A stretch of DNA of 64,000 nt from an uncultured Methylomirabilota bacterium. GTDB lineage: Bacteria; Methylomirabilota; Methylomirabilia; Methylomirabilales; 2-02-FULL-66-22. Positions within the stretch are counted from its first letter, which is position 1; each line of letters starts with the position of its first letter. The stretch spans positions 4,288,001 to 4,352,000 of the forward strand of contig OY970067.1 of assembly GCA_963705305.1 (NCBI GenBank), in the 5' to 3' direction. Under the pieces are notes generated by a model. It was not told the origin of the DNA and searched no databases. It saw only the letters and a program-made list of their open reading frames with translations. Position numbers and translations under genes: made by a program. Below are positions 22,318 to 52,676 of this stretch, piece after piece.

Positions 22318-22536
22318 CACGTGGTCTGATCGTGTGGCTGGGTCGTCAGGATGCGGCGTCTATCCCGTGGCAGCGCGCGGCGAGGCAAGGCAGCAATGTC
22401 GCGCGAGCGGGATCTCGATACCTGAGCTCCCCGCAAGGGTGGGACGACTGACAGGCATAACCATCACGGATGTTTCAGCTGGGACCCGGAGGAGACCGTC
22501 CGGTGCATGAGGCGATGGGACAAGGGGGGATCGAGG

Positions 22537-24396: not shown

Positions 24397-24621
24397 AAGC
24401 CCTCGGAGAGGGGCGGCTCGAAGATCTCTTCATGGATGGGGTTGAGGTGCGGGGCGATGGCGGGCACGAGATTGCGCCAGCTCGTTTTCATTTGCCGGAC
24501 GCTGACTGTCTGGCCATCAGCTCGTATGGCAATCGACGGGAAACGGCAGTCGGTCCGTCCGGCAGGCACATGGACATTGTCTGTCGTGGCCGGGATGCAA
24601 TCAGGCAGGGAGGAGTGGAGG

Positions 24622-29273: not shown

Positions 29274-30083
29274 CTACTCGAGTACCTTCTTCTTCCTTTC
29301 GTTCTGCACGCATTCGAGCTGCGAGACTTGGCTATACCCGTTGAACTTCAGCGAGGCCCGCACCCGCCGCAGCAACTCCGCCCGATCCACGCTCCCCTTC
29401 GCGTCCCGCAGGTGTTTGCAGAAGTAGTACGAGAAAGCCCCGTTGAAGCTGCGGTTGATGTACGCGTCCGCTGACGTTCGGTTGTCCCGGCAGCCGGCAA
29501 ACAGCACGTGATTCATCGGGTTGGTGCCTCGAAGCAGCTTCGTCACCTCCATGTCATCATCCGCCCGGCACGCAATGTCCACAGGCGGTGGGAGAAACCG
29601 GGGCTTGAACGAGAGCTCCTGCGGAAGCCCGGCGATGACCGTCAGCTCACGCGTGCCCGTCCCCGAATGGCAGGCGTCCAGCAAGATCTCCAGGTTCACC
29701 CCCTTGGGCAGCGACCCGAAGGCCTGGCGCAGCTCGTCATCCACGATGTAGGTCCCGTATCAGTCCATGTCGTGCGGGCACAGGATCTCGTCCATCTTGT
29801 CCTTCGGCTCGTCCCCGTCCTGGTCCACGATCTGCGAGCCATGGCCCGAGAAATGGAACAAGAGCCTGTCCCCTGCCTTGGCCTTGGCCGTCAGCCAGCC
29901 GATCTTGGCCATGATGTTCTTCTTGGTGGCCCGGCCGTCCGTGAGAACCTGGATTTCCGTGGCGATGAAGCCGAAGTACTTGAGCAAAATGTCCCGCACG
30001 TTCGTCACATCGTTGACGCACCCGTTGAGATCCGCCCCCTCCATCTTGTACTTGTTCACCCCGACCAGCACCGCCTTGTTCAT
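29274..30083 (-). pseudogene. Metacaspase / peptidase C14 with an in-frame TGA
   Basis: ALVGVNKY..LNGCVND, HFSGHGSQ and LDACHSG; TGA at 29760-29762 (CPHDMD*YGTYIVDD), same frame on both sides. Confidence 0.85.
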
Positions 30084-30661
30084 TCCCTCCTCCTTTCCTT
30101 TGCCCTTGCCCTTTCCTCTTGGCTCCATGCCCTATGGTCTTCGCCTCTGCGCTTTTCCCCGACTCTCCGTCTCCCCGGTTCCCCGTCACTCCGTTTCTCC
30201 GGCTCTCCGATTCGCCCCCTCGCCCCCTCTCCTTGTCTCTCCCTCGCTCGTGCTCCTCCCTCCGCACCGCAGGCTGACCCCTGACCCCTGACCTCTGACT
30301 ACTAATCTTTGCTCCATGCCCTTGGCCCCTTGCCCCATGCCTCTTGCCTCTTTATCTTTTCTTTACACTATCTGAAATACCACATTCCTCACGCCCCGTC
30401 CAGCCGCACGGGGAGCCGTTCCATTCCGGACCATGTGCACCATCACAGGATGAAATCAGCTCAACTGGGTCCGATGCCAGGACGGGGATAGCTTTGATCA
30501 GGTGAGGGGATAGGGAAGGAAACTAAGAGGGGTGGGTCGATCCGATCTCGGCAGGTGCCCTGACCGCGCATTCGGCGGGATGGCAAGGCGGTATCGGAAT
30601 CAGGAGGGGCCGCGCTTGGCGCTCTGCTCTATGCTCTTCGCCCTGTGCGCCTCAACGCGAG

Positions 30662-30884
30662 CCGATCAGGTCCAGGATCCTGCGGGTCACGGCCTCTTCG
30701 AGCAGCACTTCGTCCGTCAGCAGATCCACGAGGACCGGTACCTGCTCCACAATGGTCACTTTCCCGCGGACGGTGAGGGAGATCGTTCGAACATCGCACC
30801 GCAGCTCGCTCATCTCCGCGGCCTCCTTCCACGAAAATCTGCGCTCCAGCGTTCCGGGTGAAGATCTGGCCGGTAGGTTGTCAC
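30662..30884 (-). pseudogene. DUF4258-like toxin tail plus truncated YgiT-like partner
   Basis: VTTYRPD..ERWSADFR.RR* overlapping MSELRCD..TIVEQVPVLV..TDEVLL; a full-length partner copy is at 45434-45634. Confidence 0.55.
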
Positions 30885-31003
30885 CAACTTCACTCGCTCA
30901 CGAACAATCCCGAACGCCATATGCCATGGTCGCCCCCCGTTTCTCGCTTTCGCCGACTCTCCGGCTCTCCGCACCAAAACACGGAACCCAGCGCGCCGGT
31001 CCC

Positions 31004-31252
31004 CTATTCCTGTGTGTAGAATTCTCTTCGAAGATCATCCTGGGGAACGAAACGGCTCGCCTGCCGAATGATCGCCTAGAGGGTGCCCACATCCAATTCT
31101 CTGTGCTGCGGGAGAGTCAATGTCTGCACGCTCCCCGAAGGTGCCACTCGTCTCAGCTTTACGTGACTCCCTCGTTGAGCGTGGACCCGAAAGCCAAACC
31201 GGGCGAGAATGGTGATCACGTCGTCGCCGGACAGCCGTCTAAGCTTGGGCAC
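31004..31252 (-). pseudogene. hicA: HicA toxin with an internal TAG
   Basis: MPKLRRLSGDDVITILARFGF....RGSHVKL...LP.HRELDVGTL*AIIRQA; stop at 31076-31078. Confidence 0.85.
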
Positions 31253-31475
31253 CGGCCGGCTCCAGCTCCATGGTCACCAAGATCGTGGGGTGCGGGACGA
31301 GGCCGAAGTCAGCGGCGTTTTCCCCTTCGAGGTGGAGGGCGACGGCCTCCTGCAGGTTTGCAAGGGTTTCGTCTACCGTCCTTCCCTGGGTTACGACAGC
31401 CAGCTCCATGCATTCGGCGACATACCAGTCGTCGCCCCGGCGAAGCAAGGCCTTCACGGTGTGCTGCAGCGTCAT
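31239..31475 (-). CDS. hicB: HicB antitoxin (short form)
   Basis: YVAEC.EL.VVTQGRTVDETLANLQEAVALHLE. Confidence 0.9.
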   Translation of the reverse strand: MTLQHTVKALLRRGDDWYVAECMELAVVTQGRTVDETLANLQEAVALHLEGENAADFGLVPHPTILVTMELEPAGAQA

Positions 31476-31577
31476 AGCTTTCTCCGCTCTCCTCTCAAGT
31501 GCTCTTGCCGTGCCCCCGCTCGCGACCGACCAACGGAACTGTCATCGCTTCTTACGCGTGCCATCGGAGTCTTCAGC

Positions 31578-31605
31578 ATTATAAGCCATCCCGGCCCAGT
31601 CGCAA
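31578..31605 (-). promoter_or_regulatory. Sigma70-like promoter TTGCGA-N16-TATAAT for hicBA
   Basis: Read directly on the minus strand; related copies at 37066-37093 and 46399-46426. Confidence 0.6.
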
Positions 31606-31943
31606 GGTTCTTCCTCCAGCCGCTCCTCTTCCTCAGCACCCCTGCTCCCGAGCGCAGCGGTGCGCCCCCTCCCTCCGGGGTGGAGCCCCTACGGGGTGGA
31701 ACCCGGACCGCAGGCTGACCCCTGACCTCTGACCTCTGACTACTAGTTTTTGCGCCATGCCCCCTGCTCTCTGCCCTCTGCTCTTTGCCCCGTGCCCCGC
31801 GCCCTATGCGCTTCGCAATCTGGTCAAAAACGTCGAATGTCCCCTAAATTCACAGGTTGGGGACGGTCTTGAAGTCCACCTGGATGGAGCGTGGTCCCAG
31901 CATGGATGCCCTTGACCTGTGATAAGAGGGCTGGTACTGTCTT

Positions 31944-31959
31944 GACCGTCTAGACGGTC
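31944..31959. promoter_or_regulatory. Perfect palindrome GACCGTCTAGACGGTC, probable TA autoregulatory operator
   Basis: 16-bp palindrome just upstream of the antitoxin gene; duplicated at 46765-46780. Confidence 0.55.
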
Positions 31960-31992
31960 TAGGCAGCCTTAGTCGTCTTGGGGGGCGTTCAG

Positions 31993-32223
31993 ATGAAACC
32001 GGAAAGGAAGATGGTCTACATCTCTGAAGAGGCTCATGGACGGCTCAAGCTCTTGGCCGCCCGCCGCAATCGGCCAATGGGGGAGCTCGTCGACGAGCTG
32101 GTCGCGCAAGAGCTGGCCGACCTCGTCAACCCCTGGACCGGTCCCGAGGGCCTGATGCTCCAGCAGAGCATCTTGGCGCGGATCTGGGATGATCCCGCCT
32201 TGGATGTGTATGACCATGATTGA
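31993..32223 (+). CDS. RHH-type antitoxin
   Basis: KMVYISEEAHGRLKLLAA; C-terminal RIWDDPALDVYD typical of MazF partners. Confidence 0.75.
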   Translation: MKPERKMVYISEEAHGRLKLLAARRNRPMGELVDELVAQELADLVNPWTGPEGLMLQQSILARIWDDPALDVYDHD

Positions 32224-32587
32224 GCTCCGGCGGGGTGACGTCGTCCTCGTAAGCTTTCCATTCGTCATCCCCAACCATACCCAGCGGAAGCGACGGCCGG
32301 CCGTGGTCGTTCAGTCCGATCGGTACAACCGCCGGCGAGCGGCCGTTATCGTCGCCGCCATCACCAGTACCCAGGGCTACGCCCACCTTCCCTGCAAGCT
32401 CCTGGTGGCGAAAGACACGCCTGAGGGCCGCGAGGCCGGTCTCCGCCTGGATAGCGTGGTAGACTGCCAGACCCTGGCCACGATCCCCCGAGGGGAGATC
32501 GTCCGCCGTCTCGGCAGATTTCCCCAGGACGTGATGCGTCGTCTGGACCAAGCCCTCCAGGACGCGCTGGGCTTGCCAGTGGTCTGA
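32216..32587 (+). CDS. MazF/PemK toxin
   Basis: RRGDVVLVSFPF....KRRPAVVVQ...VIVAAITS...GLRLDSVV. Confidence 0.92.
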   Translation: MIELRRGDVVLVSFPFVIPNHTQRKRRPAVVVQSDRYNRRRAAVIVAAITSTQGYAHLPCKLLVAKDTPEGREAGLRLDSVVDCQTLATIPRGEIVRRLGRFPQDVMRRLDQALQDALGLPVV

Positions 32588-33207
32588 AATGCTGGCGAGG
32601 AGTGTACGATTGGACGCCTGGGCGAACCTACCGTCCGCTGGCAGATTGGAAGCCGACAGGGACGCGTTGGAGTATGCACGGATGGGATGGGGAGGGGCGG
32701 CGTCAGATTTGGGACTGGCGGAGAGAGGAAGACAAGCAGCAAATAAGGTAATTACGGTTACAACGTCCCCCCGACGCTAGTTGGGGTCAGAGCTGTGCGG
32801 ATAAATATGCTGTACATTGTTGACCGAACCCTGATGGAGCATTTCTTTGCGACCTTTGCGTCTTGGCGTGAGAATATTCCGGGTCTCTCTCCATTTCGCA
32901 TTTCGAACTTCAAATTTCGAATTTTCCTTTGCGCCTCTGCCCCCCCCACTCGCCCCTGCGCCTCTTCGCCTCAGCGCCTCTACGGCCCCCTTCCCTTTAC
33001 CCTTTGCCCTTTGCCCTACGCCACAGGATACGGTCAATAATGTCGCAACGTCCCCTAGACCGAGTGGCGGAGAGTACCTCCCGGAGAGCGATCCATGTCC
33101 GGGCGATCGGCCGCTTCCCGCGGCGTTCGGAGAGGGTCCCGGGATGCAGTTTCCCCTTGCTGGCACGTCGGGATGGCGCTACACTATGGGCACCCTGGAG
33201 GTGCTAC

Positions 33208-33531
33208 ATGAGTGTAACCACGCACAGAACCCGGACCAAGGCAACGTCGCAGCGGGAGGCGGCGCCCATGGCCTCCCGGATTGTCCGCCGGAGCTTTGCG
33301 CTTCCCCGGCACATCGTCATGGAGGCCACGGCAGTGGCCCCGGCTGAGCTGCAGACCAACCTCAACCGGCTCGTCACGACCGCGCTAGAAGAGTACACGG
33401 CCACCCGCAAACAGCAGGCCTTTGCAGCCGCCATGGCCGCCATGGCGGCGGACCCTGCGGTCACCCGCGTCTCCAGCGACCTCCTGGCGGTCTTTCGCAC
33501 GACCGAGGTGGACGGCCTCCCCGATGATTAG
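33208..33531 (+). CDS. Antitoxin of the second MazF module
   Basis: RRSFALP...NLNRLVTTALEEY...AMAADP...DGL; overlaps the toxin start. Confidence 0.75.
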   Translation: MSVTTHRTRTKATSQREAAPMASRIVRRSFALPRHIVMEATAVAPAELQTNLNRLVTTALEEYTATRKQQAFAAAMAAMAADPAVTRVSSDLLAVFRTTEVDGLPDD

Positions 33532-33886
33532 CCGCGGCCAGATCTACCGCGTCAACCTCAATCCCGTCCATGGCCGCGAGCAGAAGGGGATGCGCCCCGT
33601 CCTGGTCGTCTCCGCCGATGCCATCAACCGTCAGCCGCTCGTCGTGACCGTCGTGGCAGGCACGGACGCGACCACCGTGCCCCGCGACTACCCGACGAAC
33701 GTCCGGGTGCCGGCCCGCGAGAGCGGCTTGCCGAAGGACACGGTCTTCCTGTGCTTCCAGCTCCGAACCCTCGATCCGACGCGCTTCCAGGATCCTCGCA
33801 CCGGCCAGGTGACGCCGGTGGGCCAGCTCCCGGCGGCGCGCATGGCCGAGGTCGATACAGCGCTCCGCGCCGTGCTGAGCTTCTAG
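33524..33886 (+). CDS. MazF/PemK toxin
   Basis: RGQIYRVNLNPVHGREQKGMRPVLVVS...GLPKDTV.LCFQLRTLD. Confidence 0.92.
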   Translation: MISRGQIYRVNLNPVHGREQKGMRPVLVVSADAINRQPLVVTVVAGTDATTVPRDYPTNVRVPARESGLPKDTVFLCFQLRTLDPTRFQDPRTGQVTPVGQLPAARMAEVDTALRAVLSF

Positions 33887-34290
33887 GAGCCTGGAGAGCG
33901 CCAACAAGTCTGTGGTCGCCGAATCATGCCGGCGGGACCGTTCCGCGAATAGCCCCTCCTCTTGCGTTTCAGCGCCTGATCCTACGTCCGTGCGCGATGG
34001 CACGGAGCTGGCCGACCTGACCGGCCAGGCATTGTGCCCCAAGACGGCTTGTGAAACGAGGCCCTATCGGCAATCCCACGTCTCCCCCGTGCCGGCGGAT
34101 CGCCCTCGACCGCGAGAACCGCCTCGACGCTCATCTAGCCGCTTTCTCCCGAGCGTCGCGGGAGCGGAGAAGGGCATGCGGACGGCGGTCGTCAGGAGCG
34201 GCAGGCGGGAAGGGGGGGGATCGGACTCAGGGACTTGAGGGAGGCCCGGAAGGGTGGCGGCAACAAGGTAATTAAGGTTACAACGTCCCC

Positions 34291-34902
34291 TCGGCCTTGT
34301 TCCCCTCCATCAGGGGCACGTGTTTGTGGGCCGCCGCGTGGAAGAGGACCTCGGGCAGGTGCTCCTCCAGGACAGCCGTCATCCGCGCCTCGTCGGTGAC
34401 ATCGGCGATCACGGGGTGGAGGACGAGCTTCGGGACCTTGTCCCGCAGCTCCAGCTCCACGAAGAAGAGGCCGTTCTCGGACCGGTCCAAAAGGACCAGC
34501 TCGGCCGGCTCGAACCGGGCGATCTGGCGGCACAGCTCCGACCCGATGGAGCCGCCCGCCCCCGTCACCAGGACCCGCTTCCCGGACACGAACTGCTCCA
34601 CCTCGGCCTGGTCGATGCGGACCGGCTCGCGCCGCAGGAGGTCCGCGATGTTCAGCCGGCGGGGCCTCACCGCCAGGGCCGGGCTGTCCGTCAGCTCGCG
34701 CAGGTTGGGGATCGTCTTGAACTCCACCTGGGCGGACCGGCAGGCCCCGATGATCCGGCGCATCTGCTCGCCGGTGGCCGAGGGGATGGCGATCAAGAGC
34801 TCGTGGATCGCATGCGTGTGGCACAACCCGGGCAGCTCGTCGATCGTCCCCAGCACCTTCTTGCCGTGGATGCGCCGGCCCTGCCTGGCCGGATCGTCGT
34901 CC
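34291..34902 (-). pseudogene. 612-bp internal fragment of a CapD/PglF-like dehydratase gene
   Basis: Collinear with 54270-54881 but with many substitutions; begins immediately after site A at 34261-34290. Confidence 0.9.
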
Positions 34903-35008
34903 GCGGGCCCCACCGTACCGTCCGTCCCTCTCCTCGGAAGGTCTTGACATGTGTTGTCAGATCTGCCAACATCGCAATTACCGGCGGCCCAAGGGAAGGC
35001 AAGATACG

Positions 35009-35355
35009 ATGACTCGGAAGACACGACCAATTTCGTGGGTCAGCGCGGCGCTCAGGGAATTCCAGGCGTTCCCGGAGGGGGCCAAGGCGATTTGTCTTGC
35101 CGCTCTCACGGTGGCCGCTGAAAACGAGAAAGCTGACATTGCGAGCCGATGCACGGCATGGGCGCGGGTGTATTTGAGATCGCTCTGCGGTTTCGGAGCA
35201 ATGCGTTTCGAGTCGTCTATCCCGTGCAGCTTGGAGACGACATCTGGGTGCTCCATGCGTTCGAGAAGAAATCGAAGCGGGGCGCCAAAACTCCGGGGGG
35301 CGAAATCGATTTGATTAAGAACCGCCTGAAGAGATTGAGGGAGATGTTGCCATGA
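35009..35355 (+). pseudogene. RelE/Gp49-like toxin, frameshifted
   Basis: MTRKTRPISW..AALREFQAFP...KADIA / (K)PMHGMGAGVFEIAL....FRVVY....IWVLHAFEKKS; one base missing near 35143. Confidence 0.85.
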
Positions 35356-35672
35356 AAACAAAGGGGGAAGTTATGCGCGGCAGCGGGAATGTTTTCCGCG
35401 ACTTGGGCCGTGAGACCGCGGATATTGAGCAGTTCAAGGCAATCCTGGCCGCGGAAATCATTAAGACCCTCAACCGGGAGCGCTTGACCGTGCGGGCCGC
35501 GCAGGCGCGCACGGGCATTGCTGCGGCCGATTTCTCGCGCATTCGGAACACGGACCTCGGCCGGTTCACCGCCGACCGCCTCATGGCGACCCTCAACCGA
35601 CTCGGGGCGCGGGTGGAGGTCAAGGTCAGGGTGCGGCGCGCCGAACCTGTCGCGCACCGCGCCACAGCCTAG
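35352..35672 (+). CDS. XRE-family HTH antitoxin
   Basis: GSGNVFRDLG...KAILAAEI...TGIAAADFSRIR..DLGRFT.DRL. Confidence 0.88.
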   Translation: MKTKGEVMRGSGNVFRDLGRETADIEQFKAILAAEIIKTLNRERLTVRAAQARTGIAAADFSRIRNTDLGRFTADRLMATLNRLGARVEVKVRVRRAEPVAHRATA

Positions 35673-35896
35673 CTGTCACGTTGGCTCGTTCACTGCGCAG
35701 CGCAAAGGCTGAAGACGGCGGTGGGCTGGCAGGGGCAGCGGAGTCAGGGGTGAGCAGAGGCTGGAAGGAGGGGAGTTGGAAAATAAAGTCAATAATGTCG
35801 CAACGTCCCCTAAACGTTCTGCCGTTCGACGTTCCACGTGCTCCGCTCGATGTTCCTAACCGCCGCACGTCGAACCGCAGCACGTCGAACCGTCTC

Positions 35897-36280
35897 CTAC
35901 CGCAGCACCCCGGAGGCCCAGCCGAGGATCCCGAGGCCCGCACCGGCAGTATCCAGCAGCACGTCCCACGGGGTGCCGTGGCGGCCAGGCACGAAGGTCT
36001 GGTGCCACTCGTCCAGTCCCCCCACCGCCATTGCCGTCGCCAAGGCGCAGGCGATGACCAGCGTTCGCTGCCGGCCGTTGCCATTCGTCGCAGATCGGGA
36101 CAGCAGCCAGCCGAGGACCGCGTACTCCGCCAGGTGGATGCTTTTTCGAAGAAGCAGGCGCAGCACGTCCCCGTCCCGCATGGGGAGCGCGTGGGACGAG
36201 CCAATCAGAAAAATAACGCCAACCCAGATGAGCGTGAGCATCCAGAGTCGGCGGCGATCGGTTACCGTCGCAATCTGCAT
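35897..36280 (-). CDS. VanZ-like membrane protein
   Basis: LRKSIHLAEYAVLG..L and DEWHQTFVPGRHGTPWDVLLDTAG. Confidence 0.85.
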   Translation of the reverse strand: MQIATVTDRRRLWMLTLIWVGVIFLIGSSHALPMRDGDVLRLLLRKSIHLAEYAVLGWLLSRSATNGNGRQRTLVIACALATAMAVGGLDEWHQTFVPGRHGTPWDVLLDTAGAGLGILGWASGVLR

Positions 36281-37041: not shown

Positions 37042-37512
37042 ACGCCTTCCCTCCGGCTGCTCCGCATTATAGGCCATCCTGGCCCATTGGCAAGTCTCTT
37101 CCTACCGCGGCCCCTCTCGCTCGCTGAAGCCTGGCGGCTCTCTGCGTCCGTCGCCGCCTTGACCGGGTGGCGCCCGGGTTGCGCACGTAGGCGAGATCCA
37201 CCGCAGGCGTAGGGCTTGCCGCGCAGCTTTCCGACCCGATCGTGCGGCGACAGCGGACGAGCGGAGAAAGGCATGCGGACGGCGGTCGTCAGGAGCGGCG
37301 GCAGGCAGGGCGGTGACAATAAGGTAATTAAGGTTACAACGTCCCGTCGATGCTTTGGTGGGGAGAGGAGACGGGGAAGTCGGAAGGAGAGAGGGTCGAT
37401 CGGCTTTCGGCGTGTGCGGTGGGGGTGCGTACGGTGGGACGGCAAGGCGCGATCGGAATCAGAGGCGGCTTTGCCCTTTGCCCTGTGCGCTATGCGCTTC
37501 GCCCTTTGCGTT

Positions 37513-39591: not shown

Positions 39592-39958
39592 CGCCGGCCG
39601 GGCGATAGTAAGCAGCCCGAGCCGGCGCAGATCAGTCAGCCGTCAGAGCGGTATTCCCGCAGCAATAGAGCAATGAAAATACCCGAGAAACTCTTTTGCG
39701 GCTGAGGCATCCCGGCCCAGTCGCAAGGTTCTTCCTGCGGCCGCTCCTCTTCCTCAGCACCCCTGCTCCCTTGCGCCCTTGCGCCTCCGCCCCATGCCAT
39801 ATGCTCTGTGCCCTCTGCCCTTTGCTATCCGGACCGCAGGCTGACCCCTGACCGCTGGCTACTAGTCTTTGCGCCATGCTCTTTGCTCTTCGCCCTGTGC
39901 GCTTCACAATATGGACCATGGCTGCTTGACGTCATGGCGGTTCCGAACGTTTCGCAAT

Positions 39959-41725: not shown

Positions 41726-42030
41726 GATGGAAGCGATGGCGAGCGCTGGGTGACGTTACACTCAAAGTCGGTGCCTTCTCACCGTGTCACCAGCCGGGGG
41801 AAGCGCGGTGCGCGTCAATGCGCGTTCCCGAAAGTTCAACGTCTTTCCTCCGGTCCGGAGACTCCCCCGGATTCAGCCTCCTCGCCGGGGATCTACAGAT
41901 CCGCCCGCTCCTTTCCCGGCTCCTGTGATAGGATTATCCGCAGGTTGACGTGGCGGACGGCACTCCTACCAGCCCACGTCGTCTCGGGCGCCCAAACGTA
42001 TCTGGTCCATGGTACAGGGACCAACGAACG

Positions 42031-44541
42031 ATGGCTGACGCCGACACGAACGCTCCGCAGGATGAACTGGCCCGTGCGGAAGCCGCACTCGCAGAGCTGG
42101 AGCAAAAGACCCGCGAGGCCCGCGCCCGCGTGCAAGCCCTGCGAGCGCGGAAGACGGCTGTCCACGAATCACCGCCGTTGTATGTCGCGCTGCCATCTCC
42201 CCCGACAGCATGCGACAGTCTGACCCCGGAGCGAATCCAGCTCTTCCGTCAACTCTTCCGCGGTCGGGAGGATGTCTTCGCCCGTTTGTGGACCAATCCG
42301 AAGAAACAGACCAAGGGTTATGCGCCCGCCTGCGCCAACGAGTGGGCACGGGGCGTCTGCGAGAAGCCGCGGGTCAAGTGCGGGGAATGCCCGAACCAAG
42401 CATTTCTCCCGGTTGACGACAAAGCCATTCGGGGACATCTCCAGGGCCAGCACGTTATGGGGGTCTACCCCCTCCTGCGCGATGAGACCTGCTGGTTCCT
42501 TGCGGTTGACTTCGACGGGGCGGGGTGGCGCGACGATGTGGCGACCTTCGTTGAGACGTGTGCTAGCGTGCGGTGTCCGGCCGCCGTAGAGCGGTCTCGG
42601 TCTGGGAATGGGGCGCACGCTTGGTTCTTCTTCGCGACACCCGTGGTCGCCAGCCTGGCCCGGAATCTCGGCTCTTTCCTGCTCACCGAAACCATGGCCC
42701 GGCGGCACCAGCTCAGTATGCGCTCCTATGACCGCCTCTTTCCTAACCAGGACACCCTGCCCCGCGGCGGGTTCGGGAACCTGATCGCGCTTCCACTCCA
42801 GCACGCGGCCACGCTAAAGGGCAACGCGCTCTTCGTCAATACGACCTGGACACCATACTCCGACCAGTGGGCCATGCTGGCCTCGGTGCCCCGTCTGGAC
42901 CCAGCCCACGTGGAGTCCCTGGTCAAGGACGCCGCGCGACGGGGACAGATCATCGGCGTCCGGTCCGCCGGACTCGACGACGAGGCCGACCACGCCACGC
43001 CGTGGACCCGACCGCCATCCGGGACGCGCCAGGCCCCGGTGATCCCTGGGCCGCTCCCCCCGGAGGTCCGGGCCGTCCTGGCCCAGCGCCTCTTCGTCGC
43101 GAAGGCCGGCCTCCCCTCCCCGCTGCTCAACCAGATTAAGCGCCTGGCGGCCTTCCAGAACCCGGAGTTCTACAAGAAACAGCGAATGCGACTGTCCACG
43201 GCCGGCACGCCCCGCGTGATCGCCTGCACCGAGGAGTTCCCCGAGCACCTCGCCCTGCCCCGGGGGTGTTGCCCCGATCTCCAGGCCCTCCTCCACCAGC
43301 ATGGGGTGCGTCTCGTCATCGACGATCAGCGCACGGAAGGCGACCCTCTGGACGTCCGCTTCCACGGGGAACTGACCCCCCTCCAGGAAGACGCCGCACG
43401 CGCCCTCCTCCGGCACGAGACCGGCGTGTTCGTCGGACCCCCCGGCGTGGGGAAGACCGTACTCGGTGTCTACCTCGCGTCCCAGCGGCGGCGCAGCACC
43501 CTGGTGCTCGTTCATCGGCGGCCACTCCTGGATCAATGGAGGGTGCAGCTCGCCCTGTTCCTCGGGATCGAGGATGCGGCCATCGGGGAGATCGGCCGGG
43601 GGAAGCAGAAGGCGACCGGACGCCTGGATGTGGCCATGCTCCAGAGTGTCACGCGCAAAGACCGCGTGGATGATCGCGTGGCCGCCTACGGCCAGGTGAT
43701 CGTAGACGAGTGCCACCACATGCCCGCGGTCTCGTTCGAGCGGGTGCTCTCCGAGGTGCGCGCCCGCTACGTCGTCGGCCTCACGGCCACCCCCCAGCGG
43801 CGTGATGGGCACCAACCGATCACCGAGATGCAGCTCGGCCCGGTCCGGTACACAGCGGGCCCTCCTGGACCACGGTCCGGGAGACCGTTTGACACCCAGC
43901 TCATCACCCGAGAGACGCGGTTCCGCCTCGTCTCGGAACAGGCGACCCTCCCCATCCAGGCCCTCTATCGAGAGCTGGCAGCCGATCCCGCACGGAACGA
44001 TTTGATCCTCACCAACGTCATCCAGGCCATTGACGAGGGTCACTCCCCGATCCTCCTTACCGAGCGGAAGGATCACCTCACCTTCTTCGCGGAGCACCTC
44101 CGCGGATTCGTGCAGCACCTGGTCGTCCTGCAGGGCGGGATGACCGAGAAGGAACGGCGAGCGAGCGGGGCGGCCCTCGCGGCGATCCCGGACGATGAGG
44201 AGCGTCTGGTCCTCGCCACCGGGCGTTACATCGGCGAGGGCTTTGATGACGCCCGCCTGGATACGCTCTTCCTCGCGCTACCCATCTCGTGGAAGGGAAC
44301 GCTGGTGCAGTACACTGGCCGCCTGCACCGATCCCATCCCCGGAAGACGGTCGTCCGAATCTTCGACTACGTCGACCGTGCGGTCCCGATGCTCCAGAAG
44401 ATGTTCGAGCAACGTCTCCGCGCGTACCGCGCCATCGGCTATGTCGAGGACCAGGGGGCGGGCGGGTCTCTCTTGTCGCCGCGCAGCGAACGGTTCGAGG
44501 CGGAGCCGGAATTGCGGAGCAAGCCGGAGAAGCCCCGATGA
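42031..44541 (+). CDS. AEP primase-like domain fused to an SF2 (DExH) helicase
   Basis: LFRGREDV, Cys cluster, LAVDFD and ERSRSGNGAHAW (AEP motifs); GPPGVGKT, VDECHH, GLTAT, EGFD..RLDTL and QYTGRL.R. Confidence 0.88.
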   Translation: MADADTNAPQDELARAEAALAELEQKTREARARVQALRARKTAVHESPPLYVALPSPPTACDSLTPERIQLFRQLFRGREDVFARLWTNPKKQTKGYAPACANEWARGVCEKPRVKCGECPNQAFLPVDDKAIRGHLQGQHVMGVYPLLRDETCWFLAVDFDGAGWRDDVATFVETCASVRCPAAVERSRSGNGAHAWFFFATPVVASLARNLGSFLLTETMARRHQLSMRSYDRLFPNQDTLPRGGFGNLIALPLQHAATLKGNALFVNTTWTPYSDQWAMLASVPRLDPAHVESLVKDAARRGQIIGVRSAGLDDEADHATPWTRPPSGTRQAPVIPGPLPPEVRAVLAQRLFVAKAGLPSPLLNQIKRLAAFQNPEFYKKQRMRLSTAGTPRVIACTEEFPEHLALPRGCCPDLQALLHQHGVRLVIDDQRTEGDPLDVRFHGELTPLQEDAARALLRHETGVFVGPPGVGKTVLGVYLASQRRRSTLVLVHRRPLLDQWRVQLALFLGIEDAAIGEIGRGKQKATGRLDVAMLQSVTRKDRVDDRVAAYGQVIVDECHHMPAVSFERVLSEVRARYVVGLTATPQRRDGHQPITEMQLGPVRYTAGPPGPRSGRPFDTQLITRETRFRLVSEQATLPIQALYRELAADPARNDLILTNVIQAIDEGHSPILLTERKDHLTFFAEHLRGFVQHLVVLQGGMTEKERRASGAALAAIPDDEERLVLATGRYIGEGFDDARLDTLFLALPISWKGTLVQYTGRLHRSHPRKTVVRIFDYVDRAVPMLQKMFEQRLRAYRAIGYVEDQGAGGSLLSPRSERFEAEPELRSKPEKPR

Positions 44542-44900: not shown

Positions 44901-45433
44901 ACCGCACCGATCCTCACCCTCACTGCCGCAGCCAGTTGCGCCCCACTGAACGTCTCCGAGGCGAATCCCCCGTCAAGTTTCTACCACAGCGCCCTGGAAC
45001 ATCGCCGATCTCGGCCCATATCGTAGGGACTATAGAGGCAACGATAAGGCCCGCAACCAACACAGGCCTCGACATATCGCGTTAGCCCTCCTTGACCCGC
45101 GAGCTGCGGTCGCGCGTAGCGCACCCATCGGTGTCACGCAGCGAACGACATGGACGTCATCATTAGTTCCTCTTCCCCGCTCCTCTTGGGGCCCTTTGCG
45201 AGGCGGTGATTTCGTCGGAATGGAGCTAGCGAAAGGCGGGAGGAAGGGAGGCGGCAACAAGACAACTTATGCTACAACGTTCCATCGTACACGAAATTCG
45301 GCAACAGCAATAACCAGATCGCGTCCCCTTTCTTGTGCCTGCGCGGAGAACCGACCCTACGCCTCGACGAGAATGACGGAAGTGCCTCGCTGTTTAGTGT
45401 GCGACGCTTTCCGAGGTTCGGCAGGAGATGCAG

Positions 45434-45705
45434 TCAAAAAGCATATACCGGGGTCTGCTCCAGGCGAACGGGAGGCGTGGACCCGATCAGGTCCAGGATC
45501 CTGCGGGTCACGGCCTCTTCGAGCAGCACTTCGTCCGTCAGCAGATCCACGAGGACCGGTACCTGCTCCACAATGGTCACTTTCCCGCGGACGGTGAGGG
45601 AGATCGTTCGAACATCGCACCGCAGCTCGCTCATCTCCGCGGCCTCCTTCCACGAAAATCTGCGCTCCAGCGTTCCGGGTGAAGATCTGGCCGGTAGGTT
45701 GTCAC
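45434..45705 (-). CDS. YgiT-like protein (45434-45634) preceded by a DUF4258-like tail
   Basis: TIVEQVPVLV...DEVLL..AVTRRI.D.I......R....PVYAF; CxxC zinc ligands are not evident. Confidence 0.55.
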
Positions 45706-45824
45706 CAACTTCACTCGCTCACGAACAATCCCGAACGCCATATGCCATGGTCGCCCCCCGTTTCTCGCTTTCGCCGACTCTCCGGCTCTCCGCACCAAAA
45801 CACGGAACCCAGCGCGCCGGTCCC

Positions 45825-46073
45825 CTATTCCTGTGTGTAGAATTCTCTTCGAAGATCATCCTGGGGAACGAAACGGCTCGCCTGCCGAATGATCGCCTAG
45901 AGGGTGCCCACATCCAATTCTCTGTGCTGCGGGAGAGTCAATGTCTGCACGCTCCCCGAAGGTGCCACTCGTCTCAGCTTTACGTGACTCCCTCGTTGAG
46001 CGTGGACCCGAAAGCCAAACCGGGCGAGAATGGTGATCACGTCGTCGCCGGACAGCCGTCTAAGCTTGGGCAC
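45825..46073 (-). pseudogene. hicA: HicA toxin with an internal TAG (copy 2)
   Basis: Same sequence as 31004-31252. Confidence 0.85.
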
Positions 46074-46296
46074 CGGCCGGCTCCAGCTCCATGGTCACCA
46101 AGATCGTGGGGTGCGGGACGAGGCCGAAGTCAGCGGCGTTTTCCCCTTCGAGGTGGAGGGCGACGGCCTCCTGCAGGTTTGCAAGGGTTTCGTCTACCGT
46201 CCTTCCCTGGGTTACGACAGCCAGCTCCATGCATTCGGCGACATACCAGTCGTCGCCCCGGCGAAGCAAGGCCTTCACGGTGTGCTGCAGCGTCAT
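46060..46296 (-). CDS. hicB: HicB antitoxin (copy 2)
   Basis: Protein identical to 31239-31475. Confidence 0.9.
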   Translation of the reverse strand: MTLQHTVKALLRRGDDWYVAECMELAVVTQGRTVDETLANLQEAVALHLEGENAADFGLVPHPTILVTMELEPAGAQA

Positions 46297-46813
46297 AGCT
46301 TTCTCCGCTCTCCTCTCAAGTGCTCTTGCCGTGCCCCCGCTCGCGACCGACCAACGGAACTGTCATCGCTTCTTACGCGTGCCATCGGAGTCTTCAGCAT
46401 TATAAGCCATCCCGGCCCAGTCGCAAGGTTCTTCCTCCAGCCGCTCCTCTTCCTCAGCACCCCTGCTCCCGAGCGCAGCGGTGCGCCCCCTCCCTCCGGG
46501 GTGGAGCCCCTACGGGGTGGAACCCGGACCGCAGGCTGACCCCTGACCTCTGACCTCTGACTACTAGTTTTTGCGCCATGCCCCCTGCTCTCTGCCCTCT
46601 GCTCTTTGCCCCGTGCCCCGCGCCCTATGCGCTTCGCAATCTGGTCAAAAACGTCGAATGTCCCCTAAATTCACAGGTTGGGGACGGTCTTGAAGTCCAC
46701 CTGGATGGAGCGTGGTCCCAGCATGGATGCCCTTGACCTGTGATAAGAGGGCTGGTACTGTCTTGACCGTCTAGACGGTCTAGGCAGCCTTAGTCGTCTT
46801 GGGGGGCGTTCAG

Positions 46814-47044
46814 ATGAAACCGGAAAGGAAGATGGTCTACATCTCTGAAGAGGCTCATGGACGGCTCAAGCTCTTGGCCGCCCGCCGCAATCGGCCAATG
46901 GGGGAGCTCGTCGACGAGCTGGTCGCGCAAGAGCTGGCCGACCTCGTCAACCCCTGGACCGGTCCCGAGGGCCTGATGCTCCAGCAGAGCATCTTGGCGC
47001 GGATCTGGGATGATCCCGCCTTGGATGTGTATGACCATGATTGA
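46814..47044 (+). CDS. RHH-type antitoxin (copy 2)
   Basis: Identical to 31993-32223. Confidence 0.75.
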   Translation: MKPERKMVYISEEAHGRLKLLAARRNRPMGELVDELVAQELADLVNPWTGPEGLMLQQSILARIWDDPALDVYDHD

Positions 47045-47408
47045 GCTCCGGCGGGGTGACGTCGTCCTCGTAAGCTTTCCATTCGTCATCCCCAACCATA
47101 CCCAGCGGAAGCGACGGCCGGCCGTGGTCGTTCAGTCCGATCGGTACAACCGCCGGCGAGCGGCCGTTATCGTCGCCGCCATCACCAGTACCCAGGGCTA
47201 CGCCCACCTTCCCTGCAAGCTCCTGGTGGCGAAAGACACGCCTGAGGGCCGCGAGGCCGGTCTCCGCCTGGATAGCGTGGTAGACTGCCAGACCCTGGCC
47301 ACGATCCCCCGAGGGGAGATCGTCCGCCGTCTCGGCAGATTTCCCCAGGACGTGATGCGTCGTCTGGACCAAGCCCTCCAGGACGCGCTGGGCTTGCCAG
47401 TGGTCTGA
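47037..47408 (+). CDS. MazF/PemK toxin (copy 2)
   Basis: Identical to 32216-32587. Confidence 0.92.
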   Translation: MIELRRGDVVLVSFPFVIPNHTQRKRRPAVVVQSDRYNRRRAAVIVAAITSTQGYAHLPCKLLVAKDTPEGREAGLRLDSVVDCQTLATIPRGEIVRRLGRFPQDVMRRLDQALQDALGLPVV

Positions 47409-47599
47409 AATGCTGGCGAGGAGTGTACGATTGGACGCCTGGGCGAACCTACCGTCCGCTGGCAGATTGGAAGCCGACAGGGACGCGTTGGAGTATGCAC
47501 GGATGGGATGGGGAGGGGCGGCGTCAGATTTGGGACTGGCGGAGAGAGGAAGGCAAGCGGCAAATAAGGTAATTACGGTTACAACGTCCCCCCGATGGC

Positions 47600-47827
47600 T
47601 CAGGTGGGCGGACCGTAGAGGCACTGGTCGTGCCGGATGGAGATATCGGTTTCGGTCGATTCCCCGTTCCCGATGAGCGCCTCCAGTCCTCGTCGCTGCC
47701 CCTCTGCGATTCGGGCAGGCTCATCTGGAAGCAAGAGCACATAGATGTGCTCCTTCTCCCTCAGGTCCACCGACTCCAGAGGCCGAAGGATGCCACACTC
47801 ATAAACGGCCTGAACGACTTTTGTCAC
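47600..47827 (-). CDS. DUF104/AF2212-like antitoxin (orphan)
   Basis: VQAVYE.GILRPLE.VDL.E.E.I; lies between site A (47562) and site B (48002). Confidence 0.78.
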   Translation of the reverse strand: MTKVVQAVYECGILRPLESVDLREKEHIYVLLLPDEPARIAEGQRRGLEALIGNGESTETDISIRHDQCLYGPPT

Positions 47828-48216
47828 CGTATCTCCTTCCCAAGCCAGGAGGTAGATTCCCTTGAACCTGAGAGTAGCTATGTGCGCTTAGGAAGTCAAG
47901 GCTTGTTCACCCGCTGCCCCCCGCGCCCCCTCTCGCCCCTGCGCCTCTTCGCCTCAGCGCCTCTACGGCCCCCTTCCCTTTGCCCTTTGCCCTACGCCAC
48001 AGGATACGGTCAATAATGTCGCAACCTCCCCTAGCTTTTTCTCGGGCGGGTGCCGGTGAAGGTGACGGGGATGAGCTTGCCGGGCGACCACCGCTTGGAG
48101 GCAAGTGCGTGTTTCGTCTCCCGCTTCCCCTCAAGTCGTGATATGCTATGCTCTAAAATAGAGCAAGCCAGGGGGTGCTGTCGACGGCACCGGTGGACTG
48201 AACGGTCAGGACGGCA

Positions 48217-48498
48217 ATGGATATCGTAACCGCCAACCGACATGACATCTTGCGGATCGCACGCCGCCACGGGGTGGCTCAGGTCCGCCTGTTTGGCTCC
48301 CAAGCACGAGGCGTTGCGGGTGAAAGCAGCGACGTCGATCTCCTGATCGAGGTGGAGGGGCCCACCACACCGTGGTTCCCGGGCGGGCTGGTGGCTGACC
48401 TCGAGGCATTGTTGGGGTGCCGCGTGGACGTCGTGGAGGCGGACGCGCTGCACCCGGATGTCCGGGCACAGGCGCTGGCGGAGGCGCGGACGTTGTGA
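48217..48498 (+). CDS. MNT nucleotidyltransferase antitoxin
   Basis: VRLFGSQARG...ESSDVDLL....L...LE.LLG.RVDVV. Confidence 0.92.
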   Translation: MDIVTANRHDILRIARRHGVAQVRLFGSQARGVAGESSDVDLLIEVEGPTTPWFPGGLVADLEALLGCRVDVVEADALHPDVRAQALAEARTL

Positions 48499-48848
48499 AG
48501 GATGACCGGGTCTACCTCCGGCATATCCTCCAATGCATCGAGGCCATCGGCGGCTATATCACGTCGGGACGCCCGCAGTTCTTCGCAGATCGCAAGACCC
48601 ACAAGGCCGTCCTTCGCGAGCTCCAAGAACTCTCTGAGTCCGTCCAGCGGCTTTCGCCGGAACTACGAGCGCATCACCCTGAAGTCCCTTGGGCCGCCAT
48701 CGGCGGATTCAGGAACGTGCTGGTCCATGACTACCTGGGAATCAGCCTTTCCCGTGTGTGGGACGTGATCGAGCGGGATCTTCCCGCCCTTCGGACAACA
48801 GTGCTGCATATGCTCCGAGATCTCGGCGAGCGCCCTCCCGCGCCCTAA
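48495..48848 (+). CDS. HEPN (DUF86) toxin
   Basis: DRVYL.HI..CI, PEVPW..I.GFRNVLVHDY (RX4H motif) and VWDVI..DLP.L. Confidence 0.92.
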   Translation: MKDDRVYLRHILQCIEAIGGYITSGRPQFFADRKTHKAVLRELQELSESVQRLSPELRAHHPEVPWAAIGGFRNVLVHDYLGISLSRVWDVIERDLPALRTTVLHMLRDLGERPPAP

Positions 48849-49041
48849 CTCCCTGCTCTATACTTCAGCCCCCAGTGTCTTCTTCTCGACGTACGCTCGC
48901 ACCCTCATACCTCCTCGTCTTTTCTGCCCGCCTCCCCTGCTCCTCGCTTCTCCGCGCGGTTCTCAATTTCGAATGTCGCATTTCGAACTTCGAATTCCCC
49001 CCGTCGCCCGCTCCCCCCTCCGCCCCATGCCCTACGCTCTG

Positions 49042-50195
49042 TGCCCTTTGCCCTACGCCACAGGATACGGTCAATAATGTCGCAACGTCCCCTAGACCGA
49101 GTGGCGGAGAGTACCTCCCGGAGAGCGATCCATGTCCGGGCGATCGGCCGCTTCCCGCGGCGTTCGGAGAGGGTCCCGGGATGCAGTTTCCCCTTGCTGG
49201 CACGTCGGGATGGCGCTACACTATGGGCACCCTGGAGGTGCTACATGAGTGTAACCACGCACAGAACCCGGACCAAGGCAACGTCGCAGCGGGAGGCGGC
49301 GCCCATGGCCTCCCGGATTGTCCGCCGGAGCTTTGCGCTTCCCCGGCACATCGTCATGGAGGCCACGGCAGTGGCCCCGGCTGAGCTGCAGACCAACCTC
49401 AACCGGCTCGTCACGACCGCGCTAGAAGAGTACACGGCCACCCGCAAACAGCAGGCCTTTGCAGCCGCCATGGCCGCCATGGCGGCGGACCCTGCGGTCA
49501 CCCGCGTCTCCAGCGACCTCCTGGCGGTCTTTCGCACGACCGAGGTGGACGGCCTCCCCGATGATTAGCCGCGGCCAGATCTACCGCGTCAACCTCAATC
49601 CCGTCCATGGCCGCGAGCAGAAGGGGATGCGCCCCGTCCTGGTCGTCTCCGCCGATGCCATCAACCGTCAGCCGCTCGTCGTGACCGTCGTGGCAGGCAC
49701 GGACGCGACCACCGTGCCCCGCGACTACCCGACGAACGTCCGGGTGCCGGCCCGCGAGAGCGGCTTGCCGAAGGACACGGTCTTCCTGTGCTTCCAGCTC
49801 CGAACCCTCGATCCGACGCGCTTCCAGGATCCTCGCACCGGCCAGGTGACGCCGGTGGGCCAGCTCCCGGCGGCGCGCATGGCCGAGGTCGATACAGCGC
49901 TCCGCGCCGTGCTGAGCTTCTAGGAGCCTGGAGAGCGCCAACAAGTCTGTGGTCGCCGAATCATGCCGGCGGGACCGTTCCGCGAATAGCCCCTCCTCTT
50001 GCGTTTCAGCGCCTGATCCTACGTCCGTGCGCGATGGCACGGAGCTGGCCGACCTGACCGGCCAGGCATTGTGCCCCAAGACGGCTTGTGAAACGAGGCC
50101 CTATCGGCAATCCCACGTCTCCCCCGTGCCGGCGGATCGCCCTCGACCGCGAGAACCGCCTCGACGCTCATCTAGCCGCTTTCTCCCGAGCGTCG
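49042..50195 (+). repeat. Direct duplicate of 33005-34158 (antitoxin 49245-49568 and MazF 49561-49923)
   Basis: Offset 16037; starts at the site-B block. Confidence 0.93.
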
Positions 50196-50449
50196 GAGGA
50201 CTGGTTTGTCCGTCGCGCCTCATTGCCCATGTCGATCGTGGCACGGGCGATGTCCTTCCCGCCGAAACCTGGCGAGATCGATGGTGGCGCCTCCACCGCG
50301 GCCCCTCTCTCTCGCTGAAGCCTGGCGGCTCTCTGCGTCCGTCGCCGCCTTGACCGGGTGGCGCCCGGGTTGAGCACGTGGGCGAGATCCACCGCAGGCG
50401 TAGGGCTTGCCGCGCAGCTTTCCGACCCGATCGTGCGGCGACAGCGGAC

Positions 50450-52166
50450 GAGCGGAGAAGGGCATGCGGACGGCGGTCGTCAGGAGCGGCAGGCGGGAAG
50501 GGGGGGGATCGGACTCAGGGACTTGAGGGAGGCCCGGAAGGGTGGCGGCAACAAGGTAATTAAGGTTACAACGTCCCCTCGGCCTTGTTCCCCTCCATCA
50601 GGGGCACGTGTTTGTGGGCCGCCGCGTGGAAGAGGACCTCGGGCAGGTGCTCCTCCAGGACAGCCGTCATCCGCGCCTCGTCGGTGACATCGGCGATCAC
50701 GGGGTGGAGGACGAGCTTCGGGACCTTGTCCCGCAGCTCCAGCTCCACGAAGAAGAGGCCGTTCTCGGACCGGTCCAAAAGGACCAGCTCGGCCGGCTCG
50801 AACCGGGCGATCTGGCGGCACAGCTCCGACCCGATGGAGCCGCCCGCCCCCGTCACCAGGACCCGCTTCCCGGACACGAACTGCTCCACCTCGGCCTGGT
50901 CGATGCGGACCGGCTCGCGCCGCAGGAGGTCCGCGATGTTCAGCCGGCGGGGCCTCACCGCCAGGGCCGGGCTGTCCGTCAGCTCGCGCAGGTTGGGGAT
51001 CGTCTTGAACTCCACCTGGGCGGACCGGCAGGCCCCGATGATCCGGCGCATCTGCTCGCCGGTGGCCGAGGGGATGGCGATCAAGAGCTCGTGGATCGCA
51101 TGCGTGTGGCACAACCCGGGCAGCTCGTCGATCGTCCCCAGCACCTTCTTGCCGTGGATGCGCCGGCCCTGCCTGGCCGGATCGTCGTCCGCGGGCCCCA
51201 CCGTACCGTCCGTCCCTCTCCTCGGAAGGTCTTGACATGTGTTGTCAGATCTGCCAACATCGCAATTACCGGCGGCCCAAGGGAAGGCAAGATACGATGA
51301 CTCGGAAGACACGACCAATTTCGTGGGTCAGCGCGGCGCTCAGGGAATTCCAGGCGTTCCCGGAGGGGGCCAAGGCGATTTGTCTTGCCGCTCTCACGGT
51401 GGCCGCTGAAAACGAGAAAGCTGACATTGCGAGCCGATGCACGGCATGGGCGCGGGTGTATTTGAGATCGCTCTGCGGTTTCGGAGCAATGCGTTTCGAG
51501 TCGTCTATCCCGTGCAGCTTGGAGACGACATCTGGGTGCTCCATGCGTTCGAGAAGAAATCGAAGCGGGGCGCCAAAACTCCGGGGGGCGAAATCGATTT
51601 GATTAAGAACCGCCTGAAGAGATTGAGGGAGATGTTGCCATGAAAACAAAGGGGGAAGTTATGCGCGGCAGCGGGAATGTTTTCCGCGACTTGGGCCGTG
51701 AGACCGCGGATATTGAGCAGTTCAAGGCAATCCTGGCCGCGGAAATCATTAAGACCCTCAACCGGGAGCGCTTGACCGTGCGGGCCGCGCAGGCGCGCAC
51801 GGGCATTGCTGCGGCCGATTTCTCGCGCATTCGGAACACGGACCTCGGCCGGTTCACCGCCGACCGCCTCATGGCGACCCTCAACCGACTCGGGGCGCGG
51901 GTGGAGGTCAAGGTCAGGGTGCGGCGCGCCGAACCTGTCGCGCACCGCGCCACAGCCTAGCTGTCACGTTGGCTCGTTCACTGCGCAGCGCAAAGGCTGA
52001 AGACGGCGGTGGGCTGGCAGGGGCAGCGGAGTCAGGGGTGAGCAGAGGCTGGAAGGAGGGGAGTTGGAAAATAAAGTCAATAATGTCGCAACGTCCCCTA
52101 AACGTTCTGCCGTTCGACGTTCCACGTGCTCCGCTCGATGTTCCTAACCGCCGCACGTCGAACCGC
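50450..52166 (+). repeat. Direct duplicate of ~34162-35878 (capD fragment 50579-51190, frameshifted Gp49-like toxin 51297-51643, XRE antitoxin 51640-51960)
   Basis: Offset 16288; identical translations. Confidence 0.93.
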
Positions 52167-52231
52167 CGCACCTAGAACCGTCTTTCCCCCCACCTCGCAC
52201 CGTTCTCAACCGCAGCACGTCGAACCGTCTC

Positions 52232-52676
52232 CTACCGCAGCACCCCGGAGGCCCAGCCGAGGATCCCGAGGCCCGCACCGGCAGTGTGTAGCAAAATTCG
52301 AAATGTACTTTCCGAGAGGACATCCAGGGGTTCGTCACAATTCGAAATCCGAAATTCGCAATCCGCAATGTCCTTCATGCTGCCACTCGTCCAGCCCCGC
52401 CACCGCCATTGCCGTCGCCAAGGCGCAGGCGATGACCAGCGTTCGCTGCCGGCCGTTGCCATTCGTCGCAGATCGGGACAGCAGCCAGCCGAGGACCGCG
52501 TACGCCGCCAGGTGGATGCTTTTCCGAAGAAGCAGGCGCAGCACGTCCCCGTCCCGCATGGGCAGCGCATGGGAGGTTCCAATCAGAAAAATCACGCCGA
52601 CCCAGGCGAGAGTCAGCAGCCAGAGTCGGCGGGGATCAATCAGATTGGAGATTCGCATTCGGGAGACCGAGAACAA
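52232..52676 (-). pseudogene. VanZ-like gene disrupted by short TTCGAAA-type repeat sequence
   Basis: Homologous to 35897-36280, but 52293-52377 is expanded or replaced by heptamer-repeat DNA. Confidence 0.8.

Follow-up and report, generated by a model that had tools for sequence, protein, structure and literature searches.

The window analysed here, a 64-kb stretch from an uncultured Methylomirabilota bacterium (C1:4288001-4352000 of G000, its one-contig, 5.65-Mb genome), holds two alleles of one site. In one copy of a toxin-antitoxin (TA)-rich array, a 54-bp block stands alone beside a MazF module, and in the other copy two such blocks in direct repeat bracket an MNT-HEPN gene pair. Each block ends in a single terminal inverted repeat (TIR) of a TIRtron, a transposon encoding a Y1/HUH transposase (TIRYT). 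How does a TA pair come to lie between two transposon ends? We give about even chances to an account in which TIRYT made a join at a TIR tip and DNA from a related strain then recombined into one of the array copies, with no circle needed. The account builds on the make-up of the block, the presence of a cognate HUH/Y1 element, the positions of the repeat's boundaries at a tip and within heptamers, and the clustering of differences between the two copies; the enzymatic steps are all our inference.

A transposon end inside the repeat

A preliminary description of this locus reported one block in array copy 1 and two in copy 2, and both counts hold. The single block of the 'empty' allele lies at 33005-33058 (0 mismatches) and the pair at 47981-48034 (one mismatch, G>C at 48026) and 49042-49095 (0 mismatches), all on the plus strand, the pair having a period of 1061 bp with 1007 bp between its members. 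A search of the window tolerating up to 18 mismatches found no further block, and a diagnostic 23-mer occurs three times in the genome, always at this locus. Each block consists of 22 bp of heptamer (period-7) repeats followed by 32 bp that comprise a 29-bp TIR and the target bases TAG. The TIR occupies 33027-33055 in copy 1, 48003-48031 in the left block of copy 2, where its tip is joined to CTAG, and 49064-49092 in the right block, which is identical to the copy 1 block and, like it, runs unbroken into the MazF module. The position changed at 48026 is a G in 30 of 31 distinct ends. Both parts of the block have kin elsewhere: the heptamer part is related to the tails preceding other ends at window-equivalent positions 95193 and 104717, and the 3' part is multi-copy, with 40 genome matches to two 25-base cores against none in 2 Mb of Markov background. 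A position weight matrix trained on the same sites scores 81 ends at 16 or above in the genome and 2 in the reversed genome; a looser tip detector was dropped (278 matches versus 194 in the control). The block is not a unique recombinase site.

In the source genome, elements of 1.05-1.2 kb that encode a Y1/HUH transposase have this TIR family as their inverted ends. In the accessible text of the two papers, this is the TIRtron/TIRYT design published by Di Nocera et al. 2013 (PMC3733652), which corresponds to TnpA-Y1 subclass 2.1.2 of Quentin et al. 2018 (PMC6006769). The transposase gives 21 tblastn matches in the source genome, 13 of them covering at least 237 aa, and TIR pairs (at least 22 of 30 bases matching) occur at 14 of the 20 transposase loci examined. 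The cognate intact element (G000 1466802-1467877) encodes, at 1466828-1467832, a 334-aa Y1 transposase whose HCH, FQNRY and YIHLNP motifs agree with the HUH and catalytic-tyrosine features of subclass 2.1 (Table 1, PMC6006769), and its left end matches the TIR of our site at 23 of 23 bases from the tip and at 26 of 29 overall. Of three proteins scanned, one has a sub-cut-off C-terminal Bac_DnaA_C/HTH match (E 3e-6); the cognate copy has none. The tip reads GGGGACGT and does not match the published GGGGWSAS motif, which is present, according to the accessible text of PMC3733652, in the majority of TIRs, the remaining TIRs being unrelated. The exact TIR pattern occurs in 6 of 236 genomes across the phylum and, with one mismatch allowed, in 13 of 21 in the genus. 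The 1061-bp unit is not itself a TIRtron: its repeats are direct, and the window contains no Y1 gene.

Several further observations concern this family. More diverged end-like sequences lie in the array at 31822-31844, from 32781 onward and at 45256-45284, and one of them opens with GGGGTCAG, in agreement with the published GGGGWSAS motif. Two direct copies (30/31 bp) of the right end of the cognate element flank an adenosine deaminase gene (G000 1465625-1467877; L002:3626-5878). Tandem duplications spanning a TIR tip, each made of 9-16 bp of the inner end and a few target bases and lying 0-4 bp apart, were seen at C1 482048, 503078 and 769299 and at 770502 and L060; a strict script finds them at 3 of 81 ends, the others having been spotted by eye, and they could be the footprint of nicking at the tip. 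A 413-bp perfect direct repeat of the 5' part of a gene (C1 5452109-5452521 and 5455024-5455436; period 2915), whose left copy comes within about 7 bp of an intact TIRtron's left tip, is the one long duplication adjoining a full element among 14 examined. IS110-family copies cut two TIRs at the same place (C1 4387070 and 2415810).

The empty and filled alleles

The downstream MazF module, described earlier as the same in both copies, is identical over 1154 bp, its MazF/PemK ORF lying at 49459-49923 (plus strand) as at 33422-33886 in copy 1. The upstream flank, described likewise, is shared only in part. Homology covers some 60 bp of heptamer/octamer-repeat tail (32943-33004 against 47926-47980, both plus strand), with one 7-bp unit fewer in copy 2, and beyond it the copies are non-homologous (168 bp, 32775-32942, in copy 1; 330 bp, 47596-47925, in copy 2) up to the tip of the next TIR at 32770 and 47591. 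This upstream solo TIR, of a second subtype, lies at 32742-32770 in copy 1 and 47563-47591 in copy 2 (plus strand); the identity between copies that runs through it ends 4 bp beyond its tip. The 330-bp segment holds an AF2212-like antitoxin ORF (47600-47827, minus strand) that stops 8 bp short of the TIR tip; no partner toxin gene follows, and the ORF has probably lost its partner.

The remaining differences are small: two substitutions just inside the upstream TIR (47553 and 47559), the absence of one 7-bp unit from the tail, and the G>C change in the core of the left TIR. These three substitutions and one indel fall within 152 homologous bp by the left block, and the remaining 4931 bp of the comparison have none; mismatches at the edges of alignments and a non-homologous patch at 50196-50449 are left out of the count. 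The probability of such clustering is about 8e-7, computed post hoc for an interval chosen after seeing the data. The clustering means that the alleles have diverged and are not one excision step apart. Excision from the current filled allele, whether at the tip or by homology, is ruled out because the copy 2 flank would remain, and insertion into the current copy 1 is ruled out because the copy 1 flank would remain. A diverged allele supplied a tract of one copy. Foreign alleles are also suggested by a capD stub that is cut at the next tip and 93% identical to the intact gene.

The repeat's outer boundary lies 3 bp beyond the TIR tip. Flank homology was seen in 19 pairs of ends, of which 13 share the inner side only, three both sides (a syntenic duplicate) and three the outer side only; exact identity ends 0-6 bp past the tip in all 13 inner-only pairs, this pair at 3, and a random boundary in this array would fall so near a tip with a probability of about 0.004. 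The base after the tip is T in 67 of 81 ends and, taken together with the tip rule, this makes the left junction resemble an ordinary transposon-end junction into CTAG. The inner boundary falls in heptamers, the repeat reaching 22 bp inside the TIR. There the unit's own heptamer tail (48960-49054, plus strand) is in register with an unrelated tail (39789-39821) over 12 of the first 13 block bases and then switches to the block. A mirror case in the same array, 37318/38675, shares 149 bp from the TIR core outward to a heptamer tract. A second MNT-HEPN pair lies between same-subtype TIRs, with a period of 1107, in an eight-end array inside the cluster. In G020, a genome of the same genus, Fic and AAA-ATPase genes lie between 58-bp repeats (93% identity, period 3778) that comprise inner flank, TIR and 9 outer bases; no empty allele for this case was found in 21 genomes. 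Of the earlier interpretation, then, the repeat boundary as a point of recombination stands, and the movement of a circular cassette at the site is not supported.

The inter-block segment (48035-49041, plus strand; 1007 bp) has a GC content of 63.1%, against 63.4% for the window, and contains no mobility gene. Its MNT-HEPN pair is intact, as first described, with both ORFs open and overlapping by 4 bases. An MNT (MntA-like) antitoxin of 93 aa (48217-48498, plus strand; NTP_transf_2, E 7e-13) with a GSX10DXD motif lies upstream of a HEPN (HepT-like) RNase toxin of 117 aa (48495-48848, plus strand; E 2e-22; GTG start at 48495, stop at 48848) with RX4HXY. Both proteins score under the NCBIfam equivalog cut-offs. 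RX4H is the spacing seen in HEPN proteins, and the whole, a GSX10DXD MNT upstream of a HEPN protein with RX4H and an adjacent tyrosine, has the type VII HepT/MntA layout. The pair is predicted to work as a type VII module, with MNT adenylylating and thereby silencing the HEPN RNase.

Homologous pairs elsewhere lie in other surroundings. The best matches to the unit in relatives cover the genes only, at 68-71% identity in seven same-genus genomes. The preliminary description had proposed looking in other genomes for the pair bounded by the same site, and across 84 other MNT-HEPN loci (76, and 8 more from the same genus, all at most about 70% identical) no TIR was found beside the pair with the G000 matrix, which would miss other TIR subtypes, and no TIRYT gene near it; for relatives at this distance, the result speaks against the cassette as first proposed. 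Some direct repeat spans the pair at 10 of the 84 loci. Tight, long direct repeats other than TIRs (500-bp flanks) occur at 6 of 73 testable MNT-HEPN loci versus 1 of 134 control cores (Fisher p=0.008), and at 1 of 300 random G000 cores; examples measure 141 bp (98%), 78 bp (97%) and 65 bp (86%). Such a footprint is known from restriction-modification genes, as insertion with long target duplication (PMC2853133). At L093, L101, L105, L129 and L069, homologues lie between 36-141-bp direct repeats of ordinary host DNA with periods of 732-1116 bp, in hosts that comprise Anaerolineae, a methanogen, Nitrospirae, Acidobacteriaceae and a same-genus genome. L093 has a third repeat copy, and, of five loci checked, two are located where a long upstream ORF has its 3' end.

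Origin of the MNT-HEPN arrangement

We propose that TIRYT cut at a solo TIR tip and joined that tip to a new CTAG target. Such joining in two lineages would leave one ancestral end with two outer neighbours, MazF in one and MNT-HEPN in the other. A tract of about 47553-49041, comprising the upstream TIR, the AF2212 stub, the tail, the block and the MNT-HEPN pair with its own tail, would then have entered one array copy from a related strain, by homologous recombination on the left and through a 13-bp heptamer microhomology on the right, stopping just before the resident block. The two blocks in direct repeat would thus be the donor and resident copies of one end. A number of points weigh against this proposal. 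No donor allele was found in 61 genomes, and a metagenome scan yielded two short contigs, both without the unit. The transposase matches are weak (NF047646 at 48-55 bits against a cut-off of 80, E 1e-12 to 7e-15), Y1_Tnp matches in the three full elements scanned are at or below cut-off, and the cognate copy has no Pfam match and no PDB relative by sequence. Cutting by any TIRYT is not reported in the accessible text of PMC3733652 and PMC6006769. Co-orientation of ends outside the two arrays (13 versus 7, p=0.26) is not significant. Homologous pairs have long direct repeats without a TIR, so a TIR is not needed for such a footprint, and an insertion of older date, with target duplication and subsequent divergence, would also account for the same differences between the alleles.

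That older insertion is the strongest competitor, a serious possibility though one we consider improbable. The 1061-bp unit would have entered an ancestral empty allele, duplicating 54 bp of target, through break repair or uptake by a single crossover, with a nick at the TIR tip as a possible start; the alleles would then have diverged and met again through duplication or gene conversion. In its favour, and restriction-modification genes aside, the locus agrees with the description of Furuta et al. 2010 in having a repeat longer than 30 bp, three whole-repeat copies, no mobility gene inside and an empty site, if one with short similarity on the left, and both changes in the left block and its flank are most simply derived states. 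The non-TIR repeats around homologous pairs and the short duplications across tips add to this. It requires, however, a second and separate event for the 168/330-bp swap next door, and it sits poorly with a right block identical to that of copy 1 while the left block differs, and with one boundary at a TIR tip, which an element-free mode would not predict. Could the filled allele instead be ancestral, and the empty one a product of deletion between the 54-bp repeats? Repeats of this length 1 kb apart are good substrates for deletion, and the G at 33050 in copy 1 fits a crossover to the left of the mismatch. The preliminary description named simple deletion as sufficient should its own reading be refuted. 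From the current filled allele, deletion would keep the left flank of copy 2 and does not yield copy 1, which has an extra 7-bp unit, two other bases by the upstream TIR and another 168-bp segment. The flank differences thus exclude a recent event and an ancient one still leaves the origin of the repeat to other models, and we regard deletion as quite unlikely.

The preliminary description took the two alleles as the mark of a circular cassette that enters or leaves there. In its most plausible form, a 1061-nt circle with one site would be excised or integrated by the HUH transposase acting on co-oriented TIRs, making the locus an integron-like array. More broadly, TIRYT might act as a single-strand 'integrase' on co-oriented solo TIRs, with tip-to-tip cuts releasing circles of TA genes plus one repeat that reinsert at other tips, and so build integron-like TA arrays in polysaccharide loci. 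The ends are indeed co-oriented, in 13 of 13 cases in the left array, 8 of 8 in the second array and 32 of 39 neighbouring TIR pairs genome-wide (p=7e-5, the pairs not being independent); replichore bias was rejected as the cause, the plus/minus counts (12/20 and 28/21) showing no clear bias. Units follow the order tip, TA genes, tail, TIR, the second MNT-HEPN pair again lies between TIRs of one subtype, three pairs have the same outer start after different TIRs, and the cognate enzyme is intact. Set against this, no single step in either direction leads from one allele to the other, the repeat exceeds the TIR by 22 bp and starts in heptamer repeats, and the left TIR core is mutated. None of the 34 tip-to-tip units in G000 recurs whole in a new context, a syntenic duplicate, IS copies and a 76-bp piece being set aside. 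A circle joint is not among the three joints listed from three low-depth contig sets, which have little power (depth 1-4 over the unit, and contigs drop rare variants); runs X2 and X3 contain 0.07 and 0.05 of the words and give no evidence. We leave both the broader 'integrase' and the 1061-nt circle only a small chance of being right.

Other site types and causes were considered as well. Integron attC sites carry the consensus RYYYAAC/GTTRRRY and fold into a bottom-strand hairpin; on either strand of 32961-33100 there is no attC core, no significant hairpin emerged in six folds (z -0.9 to 1.3), and the sole over-cut-off IntI match is split, has an internal stop and lies 3.5 Mb away (G000 853-854 kb), and we reject an integron. 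By eye, the block contains an imperfect 10-7-10 inverted pair suggestive of a dif-like site for a tyrosine recombinase; we dropped this idea because the TIR family explains the conserved part and the left arm is not conserved across ends. The block's inner bases are complementary to the first MazF-side flank bases in two short stretches (33015-33072), probably by chance, since the folding energy is not beyond that of shuffles (z -0.89 and 0.09); a search for structured RNA found no Rfam match in 30000-54000. That the assembly placed two strain haplotypes in tandem is very unlikely. The copies are near-identical with patchy differences and the genome bin has 6.5% contamination, as an artefact might, but run X1, of low depth and possibly from the source sample, has depths of 6.0-8.0 on duplicated contigs versus 3.6 (copy-2-specific) and 4.9 (shared capD) on single-copy ones, as for a real duplication.

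Array context and known systems

A minus-strand polysaccharide cluster has this TA-rich array at its 3' end, in two patchy copies: copy 1 (30659-36259) is duplicated patchwise within copy 2 (45480-52637). All 13 solo TIRs of this left array are on the plus strand and none on the minus strand. At 50196-50449, 254 bp of copy 2, 96% like 37104-37316 and with no TIR at the edges, replace 3 bp of copy 1 as a mosaic patch. An 863-aa AEP-TOTE primase-helicase is encoded between the array copies (41950-44541), and upstream of the array lie a split caspase-domain gene (29274-30128) and a 2-kb tandem gene pair of 69% identity (22523-26618). Heptamer tracts of TTCGAA and TGCCCT types are abundant genome-wide and adjoin accessory genes (in the window at 27560, 32893 and 48960). 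The second array (C1 4383165-4392717, window-equivalent 95165-104717; L005 and L006) lies 43 kb from the left one, inside the polysaccharide cluster, and the tips of both arrays face each other. Its eight solo TIRs are all on the minus strand, two of them 11 bp apart, and it includes at least six MNT-HEPN-type modules, DUF4160/DUF2442, and an intact gmd with a gmd 3' stub that starts at a tip. Beside it is a four-helix-bundle (23S_rRNA_IVP) gene, which may be linked to heptamer tracts.

TIRYT transposases have so far been described by sequence alone. This locus is a concrete substrate for them, with an intact cognate transposase, a solo end that has two outer neighbours, and a copy whose mutated core provides a natural negative control. 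Should tips be joined as we propose, solo TIRs are active points of gene capture. If circles form, this would be a new cassette system, and the empty and filled pair the first snapshot of one driven by an HUH enzyme. If neither holds, the locus is another footprint of insertion with long target duplication amid mobile-element debris. In the open literature we found no paper describing one genome with both alleles of a TA pair flanked by direct TIRtron ends (subscription papers and supplements may hold contexts of TIR clusters), none joining MNT-HEPN TA pairs with flanking repeats, and none on an HUH cassette array; the accessible text of PMC2654758 does not mention flanking repeats. How chromosomal TA pairs without mobility genes arrive is described as an open question in the accessible parts of a recent study (PMC13617665).

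The comparisons below draw on the accessible text of the papers cited. The ingredients of this locus, a type VII TA pair, TIRtron ends and the footprint of long target duplication, are known; no account of their combination came up in the open literature. TIRtrons (PMC3733652, PMC6006769) share the Y1/HUH transposase, TIRs starting with GGGG and, going by the one sub-cut-off match, perhaps the Bac_DnaA_C-like tail, and their TIRs also occur as singles, dimers and groups. Cargo between direct TIRs is not described in that text, whereas here co-oriented solo TIRs bound TA genes and have alternative neighbours. The pair follows the type VII HepT/MntA system (2020, PMC7641770) in MNT-HEPN order, GSX10DXD, and RX4H with an adjacent tyrosine; it differs in falling under the NCBIfam equivalog cut-offs, and its activity is predicted. 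Insertion with long target duplication (Furuta, Abe and Kobayashi 2010, PMC2853133) likewise concerns an addiction-type module without a mobility gene and with an empty site, and was described for restriction-modification genes with direct repeats longer than 30 bp (45-47 bp in Table 2). Beside that description of low-copy repeats and inserts below 20 kb, our site has a 54-bp repeat in three copies and an insert of 1007 bp, and its similarity to the empty site extends over 1154 identical bp on the right and only about 60 bp on the left. Where the published cases have R and M cargo and no other mobile element, the present cargo is a type VII TA pair, a multi-copy transposon end makes up half of the repeat, and the same genome also contains the empty site.

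A related arrangement is that of ParE/RelE 26 of Photorhabdus laumondii (Belot et al. 2026, PMC13617665), a TA system between two transposon-derived sites with a single site in the empty allele. Its duplicated site is a 24-bp palindromic Tn3 res-I-like resolvase site rather than an HUH element end, and a heptamer extension is not reported in the accessible text. The proposed entry of the tract, with one homologous anchor and one microhomology junction, would resemble homology-facilitated illegitimate recombination (PMC6382021), which was described for natural transformation in other phyla. Integron cassette arrays, finally, have a like layout, in which a repeated site of constant orientation follows each of the small, TA-rich units. 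Here, in contrast, there is no attC core or hairpin, the IntI is broken and distant, and the units are mosaics rather than discrete cassettes.

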